Of a stretch of DNA of 64,000 nt, positions 1-16,947 are shown one piece after another. The translations under genes were made by a program, and so were the position numbers. Location of the stretch: assembly GCA_036253055.1 (NCBI GenBank), contig GCA_036253055.1_4124.1. The stretch is one strand, 5' to 3'. The stretch's first letter is position 1, and each line of letters begins with the position of its first letter. Origin of the DNA: a phage. The notes beneath the pieces were generated by a model, which was not told the origin of the DNA, made no database searches, and worked only from the letters and a program-made list of their open reading frames with translations.

Positions 1-64
1 CATCCCTCACTCTGCTCGACTTTTAGTTTAGTATCGAGTTGGTCAGATATGTTAATGAAAACCA

Positions 65-8373: not shown

Positions 8374-8543
8374 GCTTTCACCTCGCTATCTGCTTTGCCT
8401 TTACGCCAGGCCGTTGCTAATTGTTCGCGTTGCCATAAGTCGAGTGATACGTAAAGTTTTGCATTATCACCCTTCGGATATTCGCCAGTAGTACCAATCC
8501 GATAAAACAGATCTTTCAGTACTGATAATTCTACTTGGATCAT
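8370..8543 (-). CDS. small hypothetical protein (57 aa)
   Basis: Not in track; SD AGGAG; stop overlaps next start. Confidence 0.45.
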   Translation of the reverse strand: MIQVELSVLKDLFYRIGTTGEYPKGDNAKLYVSLDLWQREQLATAWRKGKADSEVKA

Positions 8544-8632
8544 TGTATTACTCCTGATTGTGTTAGTACTTCTACGATGGCATGAATGATCATAAGTACA
8601 GCTAACACAACAATCATCGGATTCATTTGCAT
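8540..8632 (-). CDS. hydrophobic micro-protein (30 aa, single TM)
   Basis: Hand-translated MQMNPMIVVLAVLMIIHAIVEVL...; SD AGGAG 8 nt upstream; coupled to downstream gene. Confidence 0.35.
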   Translation of the reverse strand: MQMNPMIVVLAVLMIIHAIVEVLTQSGVIQ

Positions 8633-8649
8633 AAGCTGTACTCCTTCTA

Positions 8650-8862
8650 TTAATCTTTCAGCCAATGATCTTGAATGAATTTTTCACAGAATCCCTGTTT
8701 CATAGATTCTAACAGGCGTTCACGGTGAGCGGCGGCATATTGCTCAGTACTATGCGTTACGCCAGGTTGATAACGTGAAACACCGTCCGGTCCGATATAT
8801 TGAACATCCCACGGTTTTTCGTTAGTATCAGACCATTTACGAACGATTAGTTGACCTTGCAT
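8650..8862 (-). CDS. hypothetical protein
   Basis: 70 aa; SD GAGGAAA; promoter and hairpin 8880-8939. Confidence 0.55.
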   Translation of the reverse strand: MQGQLIVRKWSDTNEKPWDVQYIGPDGVSRYQPGVTHSTEQYAAAHRERLLESMKQGFCEKFIQDHWLKD

Positions 8863-8879
8863 GTTTCTTTCCTCTTAGT

Positions 8880-8899
8880 GGGGAGAATCATTTCTCCCC
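8880..8899 (-). promoter_or_regulatory. conserved 5'UTR hairpin (GGGGAGAA-loop-TTCTCCCC) between promoter and SD
   Basis: Perfect 8-bp inverted repeat; recurs with small variations downstream of most early promoters. Confidence 0.55.
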
Positions 8900-8911
8900 T
8901 TCATGTAAACT

Positions 8912-8939
8912 ATTATACAGTACTAGATTACATTGTCAA
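8912..8939 (-). promoter_or_regulatory. sigma70-like early promoter (TTGACA, 16 nt, TG-extended TATAAT)
   Basis: Minus strand TTGACA..CAGTACTGTATAAT; one of about 40 near-identical modules in the window. Confidence 0.6.
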
Positions 8940-8945
8940 TAGTTT

Positions 8946-9269
8946 TTATTCACCTTGTTTGAATTTAGTTTTCTCCATTGATTCCATGATTGCAACCAAT
9001 ACAGCATGGATCTCACTTAACGCGGCATCACTAAAAGCATTAATGAATAGGCAATCATTCTCGCGAATATTTTTAATGTACTTATCAGCAGTGGTTGCGA
9101 ATTCATTCAACGGCAGATCAAATGCTTTATCCCATAATGGATGGCGTAACTGTAACAGTACTGGATTATCACGGTCACCAGGTGAGAAAGTGCCTGTAAT
9201 GAAACATACACCAGGGATACTTTCGAATTGACAACGAACTTCTTTTGTGATAGTAGTATGAATATACAT
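8946..9269 (-). CDS. hypothetical protein
   Basis: 107 aa; SD GAGGA. Confidence 0.5.
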   Translation of the reverse strand: MYIHTTITKEVRCQFESIPGVCFITGTFSPGDRDNPVLLQLRHPLWDKAFDLPLNEFATTADKYIKNIRENDCLFINAFSDAALSEIHAVLVAIMESMEKTKFKQGE

Positions 9270-9296
9270 TTATTTTTATCCTCTATTAAATTAATA

Positions 9297-9485
9297 TTAC
9301 AGTTTATGAATCAATTCTTTATCTAAGCGATAGCGAACATTATTGATTGTAACTGCATTGTTTTTAATGCTACGCTGTACAGGTCCACCAGCAATAACAA
9401 ACGTTGCCTTATTGCCCCGAACGATGATAGCACTTCCAGGATTACCAAAATCATCTTGTACTAAAATACTTGATAAGTTTTGCAT
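9297..9485 (-). CDS. hypothetical protein
   Basis: 62 aa; SD AAGGAAAG; promoter and hairpin 9503-9561. Confidence 0.5.
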   Translation of the reverse strand: MQNLSSILVQDDFGNPGSAIIVRGNKATFVIAGGPVQRSIKNNAVTINNVRYRLDKELIHKL

Positions 9486-9533
9486 TTGTCTTTCCTTGTA
9501 GTGGGGAGAACTATTCTCCCCTTCATGTAAACT

Positions 9534-9561
9534 ATTATACAGTACTTAAAACTAAATGCAA
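9534..9561 (-). promoter_or_regulatory. sigma70-like early promoter (TTGCAT, 16 nt, TATAAT) for gene 9297..9485
   Basis: Minus strand TTGCAT-N16-TATAAT; UTR hairpin GGGGAGAACTATTCTCCCC at 9503-9521. Confidence 0.6.
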
Positions 9562-9564
9562 GTA

Positions 9565-9921
9565 CTAGGATAAAATCATTATAGGATATTCACAGTTAAT
9601 CAGTACTTCAAAACCAAAACTTTCATACCATTCTTTAAGATTAAACTCGTTATCTTCTCCCGTATCGCATTCTAAGATGATACAATCTGAATCATCGGCG
9701 GCATCAATAAAGGCATTCATTAATTCAGTACCTTCACCGTTACCGCGATTATCGGGATCAACATAAAGAGAATCAATAAACGCTACACGATCATAATCAA
9801 GATCCGGTGCAACAATGCCACGTTTAACAAACCAGTACTGCAATTGTGCTACTTTGCCTTGTACTTGATAGCCAGTGATCTCACCATTGTCTGTAGTACG
9901 CGTGATATGTTGTATACCCAT
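9565..9921 (-). CDS. GNAT-family N-acetyltransferase-like protein
   Basis: Motif-A-like DNRGNGEGTELMNAFIDAA; 118 aa; SD GAGGA. Confidence 0.5.
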   Translation of the reverse strand: MGIQHITRTTDNGEITGYQVQGKVAQLQYWFVKRGIVAPDLDYDRVAFIDSLYVDPDNRGNGEGTELMNAFIDAADDSDCIILECDTGEDNEFNLKEWYESFGFEVLINCEYPIMILS

Positions 9922-9984
9922 GATTTCAATCCTCAGTTAAGATATAAAATATTATACACTAACTAACAGCACTGTCAATACTTT

Positions 9985-10242
9985 TTATCTCATAGATCTA
10001 TGCCAACAATTACGGGGATTGCGTTTGAATATGCTATCATGATCAGCCTGGCAAGTGATGCAGTACTTACACCCCTTAACGGCCAGGCGGCGATTCTCAG
10101 GGATTTTATCGCCGCAGTCGAGGCAATGTATCAGTGATTCTATTTGTGCGTTAATTTGCGTTCTAGCGTGGTTTACAGCGGCCTGAATCACTGCGTTAAT
10201 CTCGTCTTGCTCGGCCCCGTCATTCGCGAATCCAACAGCCAT
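9985..10242 (-). CDS. TraR/DksA-family C4 zinc-finger protein
   Basis: CLDCGDKIPENRRLAVKGCKYCITCQ fits the TraR/DksA C4 zinc-finger pattern. Confidence 0.6.
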   Translation of the reverse strand: MAVGFANDGAEQDEINAVIQAAVNHARTQINAQIESLIHCLDCGDKIPENRRLAVKGCKYCITCQADHDSIFKRNPRNCWHRSMR

Positions 10243-10405
10243 TATTTTAACCTCATTATAAAAATACTATAGTACTGTAATGCTACAATAATACTACTAG
10301 TACTGATTTTATTCAAACCGTATGATACTACATATTCCCCAGCATTACCACGAATGGTAACGCCTTTGTACTTTCTATATAATTTCAACTACGTTTATTG
10401 CCTTT

Positions 10406-10476
10406 GATCAAGATTTGATCAGAATTATACGCCTTATGCTAAATTGATCCAGTACTTTTTTGATCATTTATTGATC
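10406..10476. promoter_or_regulatory. cluster of five TTGATC (GATC) sites in 71 bp
   Basis: GATC at 10406, 10417, 10446, 10462, 10473, each preceded by TT. Confidence 0.45.
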
Positions 10477-10571
10477 GATATTATATAGTTACATTTGTGC
10501 ACCCTATGGGTTAGTGACGTTCTCGTCTTGATGTAAGTATTATGCCAGTACTGGCATAATTTGTCAATAGA

Positions 10572-10769
10572 TTATTTTAACTTTTTTCTGTCATTGATTA
10601 ATGCTTTCAGTACTATACTAATGATCTGCAATGATTCATCAATGACTATAAAATTATTTTCTTTCATTAGATGATAGTTACCATTGATTGTATATTCTAA
10701 GGAGTACTGTTTACGTTTAATTTTTGATAATGTTTCTATTTGTTTTTGTACTGATTTCATGCTAATCAT
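10572..10769 (-). CDS. hypothetical protein
   Basis: 65 aa ORF. Confidence 0.45.
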   Translation of the reverse strand: MISMKSVQKQIETLSKIKRKQYSLEYTINGNYHLMKENNFIVIDESLQIISIVLKALINDRKKLK

Positions 10770-10874
10770 TGTTAAACGTCCTGTAACGCATTCTAACGAG
10801 TTAAACGGTTTAGTACTGGCATTGTATAGGGTAAAGGATTAAAGCCCACCAGCGTTAACCAGTGGGCTATAATC

Positions 10875-11018
10875 TTACATCTTGCGGATAATCTTAACAG
10901 TATCTTTCACCGATTTACCGTCTTGCTGACATTGTTCGATCATCGCGTATTGTTCTGCGGTCAGATCCTCGCCAGTTTTTGCCAGTACTGCGTCGATGAA
11001 TGAATCCAGTGCGATCAT
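10875..11018 (-). CDS. small hypothetical protein (47 aa)
   Basis: Not in track; hand-translated MIALDSFIDAVLAKTGEDL... Confidence 0.4.
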   Translation of the reverse strand: MIALDSFIDAVLAKTGEDLTAEQYAMIEQCQQDGKSVKDTVKIIRKM

Positions 11019-11117
11019 TTTGTTTCTCTCTTAGGTTAAGTTAACTACTGTTTATAAAACTTATTATACAGTACTATCAAACTATGTCAATATCTTTAAT
11101 AGTACTGGTAATATATT

Positions 11118-11297
11118 TTAGCGGTAGTCGTCGTATGCTTTATTCACCTGGCGAATGTAACTTTCAAAGGCTTCGTCTACCGTTTCATACTCCCGAACAT
11201 AATCACCATAGGAAACTACATACATCCCTTTTTGATCTTCAAACGTCATGATGATAGAATCCAGGCCGATGATTTCAGTTTTTGCGATAATAGCCAT
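11118..11297 (-). CDS. small hypothetical protein (59 aa)
   Basis: Not in track (59 aa); SD AAGGAA; hand-translated MAIIAKTEIIG... Confidence 0.45.
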   Translation of the reverse strand: MAIIAKTEIIGLDSIIMTFEDQKGMYVVSYGDYVREYETVDEAFESYIRQVNKAYDDYR

Positions 11298-11380
11298 TTT
11301 AGTATTCCTTAGTAGTGTAGTTGATAAAAGTTATTATGCCAGTACTATCAATCATTGTCAATAGTACTGTGATAATATTT

Positions 11381-11593
11381 TTAGTTAATGATAGTCAGTG
11401 TAAAATTGTAATCCCCTGCCTGGTATAGTACTTTGTCGCCGAATGTACCAACACGTTTCATATTGCAATAGATACCCATAACACTTTTTACATCTTTGAT
11501 ATTCCGAACGCCTGTGATATCCTTGTTGAAATTTTCATGTTCAGAAAATAAAACTTGTTTTGCATTTTTCAGTACAGTGCAGATATTAGCCAT
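11381..11593 (-). CDS. hypothetical protein
   Basis: 70 aa. Confidence 0.5.
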   Translation of the reverse strand: MANICTVLKNAKQVLFSEHENFNKDITGVRNIKDVKSVMGIYCNMKRVGTFGDKVLYQAGDYNFTLTIIN

Positions 11594-16863: not shown

Positions 16864-16947
16864 TGTAAAACTCCTTATTAGTGGGGAGAACCATTTCCCC
16901 CTTGATGTAAACTATTATATAGTACTGGAAACTATTTGCAAGTACTT

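Follow-up and report, generated by a model that had tools for sequence, protein, structure and literature searches.

Two small genes that lie side by side at positions 9565-10242 of a 64,000-nucleotide stretch of phage DNA (the whole of which is called the window below) raise the question whether neighbouring phage genes also work together. A preliminary description of the locus, which had read one product as an acetyltransferase-like protein and the other as a TraR/DksA-like zinc-finger protein, proposed that both act jointly in the takeover of the host. Both open reading frames were found at exactly the positions given there, on the minus strand, and a third short reading frame lies upstream:

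9565..9921, minus strand: minimal GNAT acetyltransferase, 118 aa (Pfam, AlphaFold2, Foldseek, family alignment)
9985..10242, minus strand: DksA/TraR-family C4 zinc-finger protein of the YbiI-like branch, 85 aa (Pfam, PHROG, PDB sequence matches, AlphaFold2, Foldseek, alignments)
10242..10388, minus strand: 48-aa ORF, homologue of 121Q gp293 (PHROG 38664), upstream of the zinc-finger gene

The source of the window is an Asteriusvirus, i.e., a 121Q-like jumbo phage: positions 8500-11500 are ~98% identical to phage 121Q by megablast, rising to ~99% over both genes. Asteriusviruses are jumbo phages of E. coli with genomes of ~350 kb. In RefSeq, the 121Q counterparts are named gp294, ‘DksA-like zinc-finger protein’, and gp295, ‘GNAT family N-acetyltransferase’; both family names are already part of the public annotation of the 121Q genes. 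The two reading frames are real genes and not chance ORFs, as is evident from their domain matches (see below), from the conserved homologues of both proteins, from the tail codons of the zinc-finger protein, which vary synonymously across phages, and from GAGG-type ribosome-binding sites 8-9 nt 5′ of the ATG in both genes. In the sequence TAATG, the stop codon of the 48-aa ORF and the start of the zinc-finger gene overlap. This ORF and nine neighbouring small ORFs were all assigned to PHROGs of unknown function, and no tRNA genes were found in the whole window.

The zinc-finger protein and its relatives

The proposed TraR/DksA-like nature of the 85-aa protein was borne out by matches to Pfam zf-dskA_traR (PF01258; E 2.2e-11, 44 bits against a cut-off of 24.9) and to PHROG 54, ‘DksA-like zinc-finger protein’. 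A cysteine spacing at odds with the TraR/DksA family, which had been named as grounds for giving up this assignment, was not found: C40/C43/C61/C64 form a CxxC-x17-CxxC arrangement, the same as C37/C40/C58/C61 of F-plasmid TraR. The arginines R51-R52, which are invariant in the clade, lie inside the motif I47-P48-E49-x-R-R and align with TraR R48-R49, which contact the β′ rim helices and β′ Si3 of RNA polymerase (PMC9239242, PMC6970531). Both I-P-E-x-R-R and the G..C..CQ signature are identical to TraR. Among the NCBIfam models, the YbiI equivalog NF008243 is the nearest (79.5 bits, below the cut-off of 96), followed by the TraR subfamily TIGR02419 (50.2 bits, below the cut-off of 59.7) and the TraR equivalog NF010268 (30.4 bits, far below the cut-off of 108). 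Sequence comparison thus places the protein on the YbiI-like branch of the DksA/TraR family.

The AlphaFold2 model, built with 40 homologues (mean pLDDT 71), comprises a 25-residue N-terminal helix (residues 8-32), a zinc globule and a short helix (62-68), and its Foldseek matches are YbiI, TraR bound to RNA polymerase, and DksA. Residues 1-7 and 69-85 are of low confidence (pLDDT ~50); on the C-terminal side, the short helix is followed by a basic tail (residues 72-85, FKRNPRNCWHRSMR) that is poorly modelled but invariant, with R74, R77, H81, R82 and R85 as conserved residues. In TraR, the C-terminal helix contacts β Si1 (PMC9239242, PMC6970531).

The N-terminal tip reads M-A-V-G-F-A-N-D-G-A-E-Q. 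TraR relies for its function on DxxDxA, a motif at the tip of its N-terminal helix (PMC9239242, PMC6970531), which comes to within ~4 Å of the active-site Mg2+, and two TraR homologues with imperfect DxxDxA motifs are weaker. This motif was sought in the 85-aa protein and is absent; the corresponding stretch is F5-A-N-D8-G-A10, in which a Phe takes the place of the first Asp and only a D-x-A triplet is kept, in a register that matches TraR D6-x-A8 approximately, with a shift of one residue if the first Cys is taken as the reference. The invariance of Gly4 and Gly9 in the clade speaks against a plain helix at this tip.

Homologues of the zinc-finger protein were detected by tblastn in 708 phage records, mostly of virulent phages, T4-like or jumbo; with lambda-type Orf73, the likeness is restricted to the finger region. 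In alignments, the YbiI-like clade has the N-terminal motif MA-x-G-[FWY] in common and one of two C-terminal tails. The tail YNRRGSKDSQLR is found in YbiI and in phages of Slopekvirus, Vequintavirinae, Yoloswagvirus, Alcyoneusvirus and Crifsvirus, whereas PRNCWHRSMR is the tail in Asteriusvirus and in T-even-like phages, VR7, Moon and RZ among them. The start MAVGF is common to YbiI and five other phage homologues, and the invariant termini of the window protein's own clade, MAVGFAKDGAEQ... at the start and ...PRNCWHRSMR at the end, are shared with T4-like phages. Both tails are under selection at the protein level, since their codons vary synonymously while the peptide stays fixed. A possible origin of PRNCWHRSMR as a frameshifted YNRRGSKDSQLR was rejected: no alternative frame matches, and both tails vary synonymously. 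What is new here is a YbiI-like clade of virulent phages with an invariant tip and tail of its own.

Possible action on RNA polymerase

A role in transcription is plausible for the zinc-finger protein alone, and binding inside RNA polymerase's secondary channel is the most likely mechanism, which we favour with somewhat better than even confidence. The zinc-finger globule would dock with R51 and R52 on the β′ rim helices, like TraR and lambda Orf73, and the N-terminal helix with the invariant tip MAVGFA(K/N)DGAEQ would enter the channel. Initiation kinetics might then be altered without ppGpp, with rRNA and ribosomal-protein promoters being turned down, and the conserved basic tail might substitute for TraR's C-terminal helix. 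A TraR-like action is only plausible, because DxxDxA is absent, the NCBIfam scores stay below their cut-offs, and the closest characterised relative is YbiI, the role of which is unsettled. At high level, YbiI relieved a dksA-null strain of its auxotrophy, according to a paper that does not show the data (PMC2613031). The same authors favoured a role in iron metabolism (PMC2613031), and ybiI expression depends on σS. Some zinc-finger proteins of the DksA/TraR family do not act like DksA (PMC9239242). In the literature on Asteriusvirus found here, DksA is mentioned in no paper.

The protein might not act on RNA polymerase, being instead a small zinc-ribbon protein whose partner is something else, for example nucleic acid, a factor in metal homeostasis, as has been proposed for YbiI, or a phage protein. 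The family members RSP0166 and SMc00049, which lack a DksA-like function, the position of the σS-dependent ybiI beside the iron genes fiu-ybiX, and the very basic conserved tail, which could bind nucleic acid, are all consistent with this possibility. However, the protein keeps the RNA polymerase contact residues I-P-E-x-R-R of the globular domain and a single long N-terminal helix, similar in length to that of TraR, and the non-functional relatives cited are longer and miss several features. A partner other than RNA polymerase is therefore considered unlikely.

Alternatively, the protein could occupy the secondary channel as a competitor or plug rather than as a TraR mimic. It would displace DksA (perhaps also GreA/GreB) and so relieve the damping of phage early transcription by DksA, or it would block the active site of polymerase molecules that are off phage DNA. 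Host DksA does lower the transcripts of T4 early promoters, and deletion of dksA doubles the burst size (PMC6024815); moreover, the clade occurs in virulent T4-like and jumbo phages and not in temperate ones, DxxDxA has given way to another N-terminus, itself invariant, that contains two glycines and an aromatic residue, and the tail is unlike TraR's C-terminal helix. What makes a competitor doubtful is the strict conservation of the tip, which suggests an active effector and not a passive plug, and the reported complementation of a dksA-null strain by YbiI, which has the same N-terminus and would be DksA-like in this respect, not anti-DksA. An extension to the whole Asteriusvirus/T-even-like clade is equally doubtful: its members would be mechanistically distinct secondary-channel effectors of virulent phages, with MAVGFAKDGAEQ in place of DxxDxA and PRNCWHRSMR in place of the TraR C-terminal helix, that plug the active site or antagonise DksA/Gre factors instead of mimicking DksA plus ppGpp. 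If the favoured binding in the secondary channel holds true, TraR-style host reprogramming would no longer be confined to plasmids and temperate phages but would also occur in large virulent ones, both T4-like and jumbo, and the variant tip and tail could reveal how far the TraR mechanism depends on DxxDxA.

Promoters and likely early expression

The GNAT gene has a promoter of its own, and further promoter elements flank the two genes:

9951..9978, minus strand: GNAT promoter, perfect σ70 consensus TTGACA-16-TATAAT with 12/12 matches (promoter scan)
9534..9561, minus strand: promoter TTGCAT-16-TATAAT of the next downstream gene, a 62-aa ORF at 9297-9485 (sequence and alignment)
9503..9521, minus strand: 5′-UTR stem-loop GGGGAGAATAGTTCTCCCC, downstream of the promoter 9534..9561 (sequence)
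10539..10567, minus strand: near-consensus promoter TTGACA-17-CATAAT, upstream of the pair formed by the gp293-like and the zinc-finger gene (promoter scan)
10288-10316: weaker candidate promoter TTGAAT-17-TATTAT (promoter scan)

The GNAT promoter begins 7 nt past the stop codon of the zinc-finger gene, and the promoter at 9534..9561 is at the same time the downstream boundary of the GNAT cassette described below. Near-consensus σ70 promoters (at most one mismatch) number 42 in the window, against ~5 expected from first-order Markov random sequences, among which the maximum was 9. Nearly all of them lie 25-60 nt upstream of a small ORF, and 37 of the 42 are on the minus (gene) strand. A conserved 5′ stem-loop follows many of the window's promoters. 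The one at 9503..9521 is a copy of a repeated promoter-plus-hairpin module, which is present in eight strict copies in the window and was also detected in 121Q and PBECO4 by blastn. In phage vB_Ec-M-J, both genes are located at 12.3-13.0 kb of an annotated direct terminal repeat of 21.5 kb; for phage fEgEco12, a 21-kb repeat has been confirmed by restriction digests. Both genes would thus belong to an array of small genes that run in a single direction, each driven by a near-consensus promoter for host σ70. Given the dense near-consensus σ70 promoters and the position in a ~21-kb terminal repeat, both genes are likely expressed early, which would fit transcription by unmodified host polymerase.

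The GNAT cassette and the independence of the two genes

The GNAT gene lies on a discrete segment:

9536..9967, minus strand: GNAT cassette (blastn breakpoints; three-way alignment with PBECO4 and Shigella phage SF1-1)

These 432 bp, which include the GNAT gene, are present in the window and in 121Q, and 13 bp are found in their place in PBECO4, which keeps the zinc-finger gene at 91% identity, although unannotated. The breakpoints of the cassette fall inside both flanking promoter modules (between AAAAGTAT and TGACA...). In the 146-kb Shigella phage SF1-1, the cassette, including its 5′UTR, sits between equivalent promoter modules, with 93% identity of the GNAT protein and 87% identity of the DNA; its neighbours are unrelated to those in the window, and no DksA-like gene was found within 3 kb of the SF1-1 GNAT gene. 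Klebsiella phage 05F01 carries a copy with 49% identity, and GNAT relatives of 134-139 aa occur in other phage contigs. A DksA-like neighbour was found for none of the GNAT homologues in SF1-1, 05F01 and the metagenomic loci L002-L009 and L020-L022, and no DksA-like domain was detected near distant GNAT homologues (37-54% identity), either by tblastn of L002-L012 or in the precomputed Pfam annotation of L020-L022. Conversely, no GNAT neighbour was found for the zinc-finger homologues in VR7 (in its mobD cluster), PMBT1, Kashira, Yoloswag, K64-1 and ECO319P1. Homologues of the zinc-finger protein in T4-like phages, Slopekvirus, Alcyoneusvirus, Yoloswagvirus and Crifsvirus likewise have no GNAT gene next to them.

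The distributions of the two genes differ as well. GNAT was found in only 25 phage records, versus the 708 with zinc-finger homologues. The zinc-finger protein occurs at 80% identity or more in ~34 phage records, and GNAT in 23 Asteriusvirus records only; by record counts, ~11 of 34 close relatives therefore keep the zinc-finger gene without GNAT, as was checked directly for PBECO4. Taken together, the gap in PBECO4, the cassette in SF1-1, the unlinked homologues on both sides and the record counts indicate that the adjacency is the lineage-specific result of the insertion of a promoter-bounded GNAT cassette, and not the sign of a working pair. The cassette would have recombined in beside the zinc-finger gene, and it offers an example of early-gene shuffling via recombination between near-identical promoter modules.

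The joint action in host takeover that the preliminary description had ascribed to the two genes is thus not supported, given the GNAT gene's own promoter, the discrete cassette and the separate distributions. In such a functional pair, the zinc-finger protein would sit in the secondary channel and GNAT would, in concert, acetylate RNA polymerase or a transcription factor. The genes are indeed adjacent and on the same strand, no terminator-like site was predicted between them, and a precedent exists in Rac of phage LUZ19, a phage GNAT that triggers cleavage of the RNA polymerase α subunit (PMC7552054). However, only some Asteriusvirus genomes have the two genes side by side, the cassette and distant GNAT homologues occur elsewhere among phages with no DksA-like gene beside them, the homologues of the zinc-finger protein in the five phage groups named above lack a GNAT neighbour, and GNAT has its own consensus promoter. 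Moreover, no sequence relation to Rac of the Pseudomonas phage was detectable: tblastn of the phage collection (E <= 1e-3) returned only phages of Escherichia, Shigella and Klebsiella. A functional pair is hence regarded as very improbable. As no terminator was predicted, co-transcription of both genes by read-through is possible in the window phage, as it is for the whole array, and a local functional link there is conceivable.

Overall, the evidence probably describes two separate accessory early genes, one for a zinc-finger protein that would act on RNA polymerase and one for a minimal GNAT, which became neighbours by cassette recombination; we hold this reading with reasonable but by no means full confidence.

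A minimal acetyltransferase and its possible targets

The GNAT-like identity proposed for the 118-aa protein agrees with its match to Pfam Acetyltransf_1 (E 5.6e-10, 40 bits against a cut-off of 20.7), with further matches above the cut-offs of Acetyltransf_7 and Acetyltransf_10, and with PHROG 1249, ‘acetyltransferase’. The Pfam profile match covers the C-terminal half only (positions 53-116 of 116). Motif A (consensus Q/R-x-x-G-x-G/A) reads R59-G-N-G62-E-G64, in which G62 and G64 are invariant and R59 is conserved in at least 90% of 48 homologues; Y99, at the usual position of the general-acid Tyr, N91 and D86 are conserved in the same set. With motif A intact and these three residues conserved, the enzyme looks catalytically competent and would probably transfer acetyl groups from acetyl-CoA.

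The AlphaFold2 model (48 homologues; pLDDT 86.9, pTM 0.80) shows a compact core without the canonical α1-α2 arm, with two strands and one helix before β4; the full β1-α1-α2 arm of the canonical domain of ~160 aa is absent. In Foldseek, upwards of 25 GNAT structures matched the model at a probability of 1.0 (TMq 0.5-0.67). N-terminal protein acetyltransferases dominate the top matches, and the best target-normalised match is AcrVA5 (TMt 0.76, rmsd 3.0 Å, ~16% identity, E ~1e-4). Since the α1-α2 arm is missing, the acceptor site should be open and a protein would be the likeliest acceptor; the open acceptor face in the model, together with the structural neighbours, tips the balance slightly towards a protein. 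Fold searches of the PDB and BFVD returned generic GNATs only (in BFVD, unnamed viral ones) and did not discriminate between substrates, and no NCBIfam equivalog was approached (best score 21.6 bits against a cut-off of 170).

A word-indexed homologue search had at first yielded 5 relatives only, so that profile and HMMER scans were needed; the profile search gave 50 and the full HMMER scan 290 representatives of the family (E <= 1e-3), most of them 118-145 aa long. All genomic contexts inspected belonged to phage records or phage-like contigs. Some relatives form the C-terminal domains of large multidomain phage proteins, and the fused partners, when checked for clues to function, comprised only an amidoligase domain (in one protein) and a DUF, which is uninformative.

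Apart from transcription, GNAT might serve in counter-defence or as another accessory (moron-type) enzyme, acetylating a host immune protein, as with AcrVA5, or else a small molecule or antibiotic. We regard this as a possibility worth considering, though we do not favour it. It is suggested by the self-contained mobile cassette with its patchy distribution and by homologues of 123 aa (~53% identity), which lie on the strand opposite to their neighbours, among genes for ArdA (anti-restriction), CcdA and Panacea-domain proteins. The prominence of AcrVA5 and of N-terminal protein acetyltransferases in the structural searches and the relatives fused to large phage proteins, including the one with an amidoligase domain, point in the same direction. 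However, likeness at this level (E ~1e-4, 16% identity) is generic to the GNAT fold, guilt by association is a weak guide, and, besides the lack of an NCBIfam equivalog, neither GNAT nor the zinc-finger protein matched any PADLOC model.

What is new for the GNAT protein is that it is a minimal enzyme on a mobile, promoter-bounded cassette. Neither this point nor that on the zinc-finger clade changes current understanding, as the family names were already annotated and a partnership of the two genes is unsupported.

Comparison with known systems

Two characterised phage or mobile-element proteins offer themselves for comparison with the 118-aa GNAT. AcrVA5 (PDB 6IUF, ~92-96 aa) is likewise tiny, encoded on a mobile element and devoid of most of the N-terminal arm; however, the two proteins share 16% identity with no match at the sequence level, and nothing ties the GNAT gene to CRISPR. 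Rac (LUZ19 gp28) is, like the 118-aa protein, a predicted GNAT encoded by a phage, and it shuts down host transcription (PMC7552054). LUZ19 belongs to another phage group, which carries its own RNA polymerase, and the activity of Rac is genus-specific.

For the 85-aa zinc-finger protein, YbiI (PDB 2KGO) is the best match in both sequence and structure (phmmer 4e-12 over residues 1-69; Foldseek 1e-5, 45% identity). They have in common the start MA-x-G-[FW]-A-N-D-x-A, the helix, the zinc spacing and the RR pair, but differ in the tail, which is YNRRGSKDSQLR in YbiI and PRNCWHRSMR in the 85-aa protein; moreover, YbiI is chromosomal, σS dependent and of unsettled function.

TraR (6N57) is the second-best PDB sequence match (1e-5), in the zinc-finger region only. 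Together with lambda Orf73 and P2 Orf82, it resembles the 85-aa protein in being small, single-helix, encoded by a mobile element and equipped with a CxxC-17-CxxC finger, and TraR residues I44, P45, E46, R48, R49, G54 and Q62 have equivalents in the 85-aa protein. Compared to TraR, however, the 85-aa protein has no DxxDxA, an N-terminal segment that is 3 residues longer with an invariant, apparently non-helical MAVGFA start, and a short C-terminal helix followed by the conserved basic tail, and it scores below the cut-offs of TIGR02419 and NF010268. While the TraR group occurs in temperate elements, the clade of the 85-aa protein has its members in virulent phages of the T4-like and jumbo kinds. 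The 85-aa protein would fit a TraR-style reprogramming of host transcription that operates without ppGpp.

Putative early promoters and a predicted 5' stem-loop module

Near-consensus sigma-70 promoters, defined by at most one mismatch to TTGACA-16..18-TATAAT, occur 42 times in the window, against an expectation of about 5, and 37 of the 42 are carried by the minus strand, where nearly all are followed by a small ORF 25–60 nt downstream. Judged from sequence, the minus-strand promoters form a very dense array of predicted single-gene early transcription units. The array and the repeated module are located as follows:

1-26200 and 43400-63700, minus strand: promoter array, from the near-consensus sigma-70 scan
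Starts at 16908, 14819, 13234, 13005, 11639, 9528, 8906 and 4879, minus strand: repeated module ACAT(C/G)AAGGGGAGAA...TTCTCCCC

The repeated module sits immediately downstream of the -10 box and would, by prediction, give the mRNA a GC-rich 5'-terminal stem-loop, which may stabilize the transcript. A reading of this stem-loop as a terminator was rejected, because a T-run is absent. The unrelated 146-kb phage SF1-1 also has this module.

On the plus strand, about 11 paralogous ORFs of 250–430 aa are arranged in tandem at 26191-39155; all three of those sampled matched PHROG 4219, a group of RCC1-repeat proteins named “regulator of chromosome condensation”.

Exchange of the GNAT cassette

The GNAT acetyltransferase cassette (window 9536-9967) was compared with the corresponding loci of PBECO4 (L010, 2538-2550), which lacks the cassette, and of Shigella phage SF1-1 (L011, 2966-3432). 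The alignment shows that the GNAT gene is gained or lost when promoter modules of nearly the same sequence (AAAAGTATTGACA...TATAAT) recombine. Such gain or loss between promoter modules in turn suggests a general promoter-to-promoter mechanism that shuffles early-gene cassettes, both within and between phage groups.

Surroundings and relatives of the zinc-finger gene

Five GATC (Dam) sites, arranged as (T)GATCAA repeats, lie within 71 bp at 10406-10476, upstream of the 48-aa ORF (10242-10388, minus strand) and the zinc-finger gene. This is the densest GATC cluster of the 64-kb window, which averages 2.2 sites per kb, and it could represent a regulatory or SeqA/Dam-sensitive region. The C-terminal half of the 48-aa ORF resembles promoter-type intergenic sequence, and the ORF is possibly not an intact gene but a decayed paralogue. 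It has a short motif, (E/M)YVVSYG, in common with a 59-aa ORF (11118-11297, minus strand).

Some T4-like phages encode a 54-aa ORF (Mosigvirus JS09 gene 077; L016, 1417-1581; PHROG 25948), in which an unrelated N-terminus is joined to all that is kept of the zinc-finger protein, its second CxxC knuckle and its PRNCWHRSMR tail. This ORF is either a remnant or a sign that the PRNCWHRSMR tail has an independent function.

Position within the terminal repeat

The whole region (vB_Ec-M-J, L017, 1-3354; records with two copies) is contained in the ~21-kb direct terminal repeat of Asteriusvirus, so that its genes are present twice per virion genome and lie near a genome end. The terminal repeat of T5 carries the pre-early genes of that phage, and the Asteriusvirus arrangement recalls T5.
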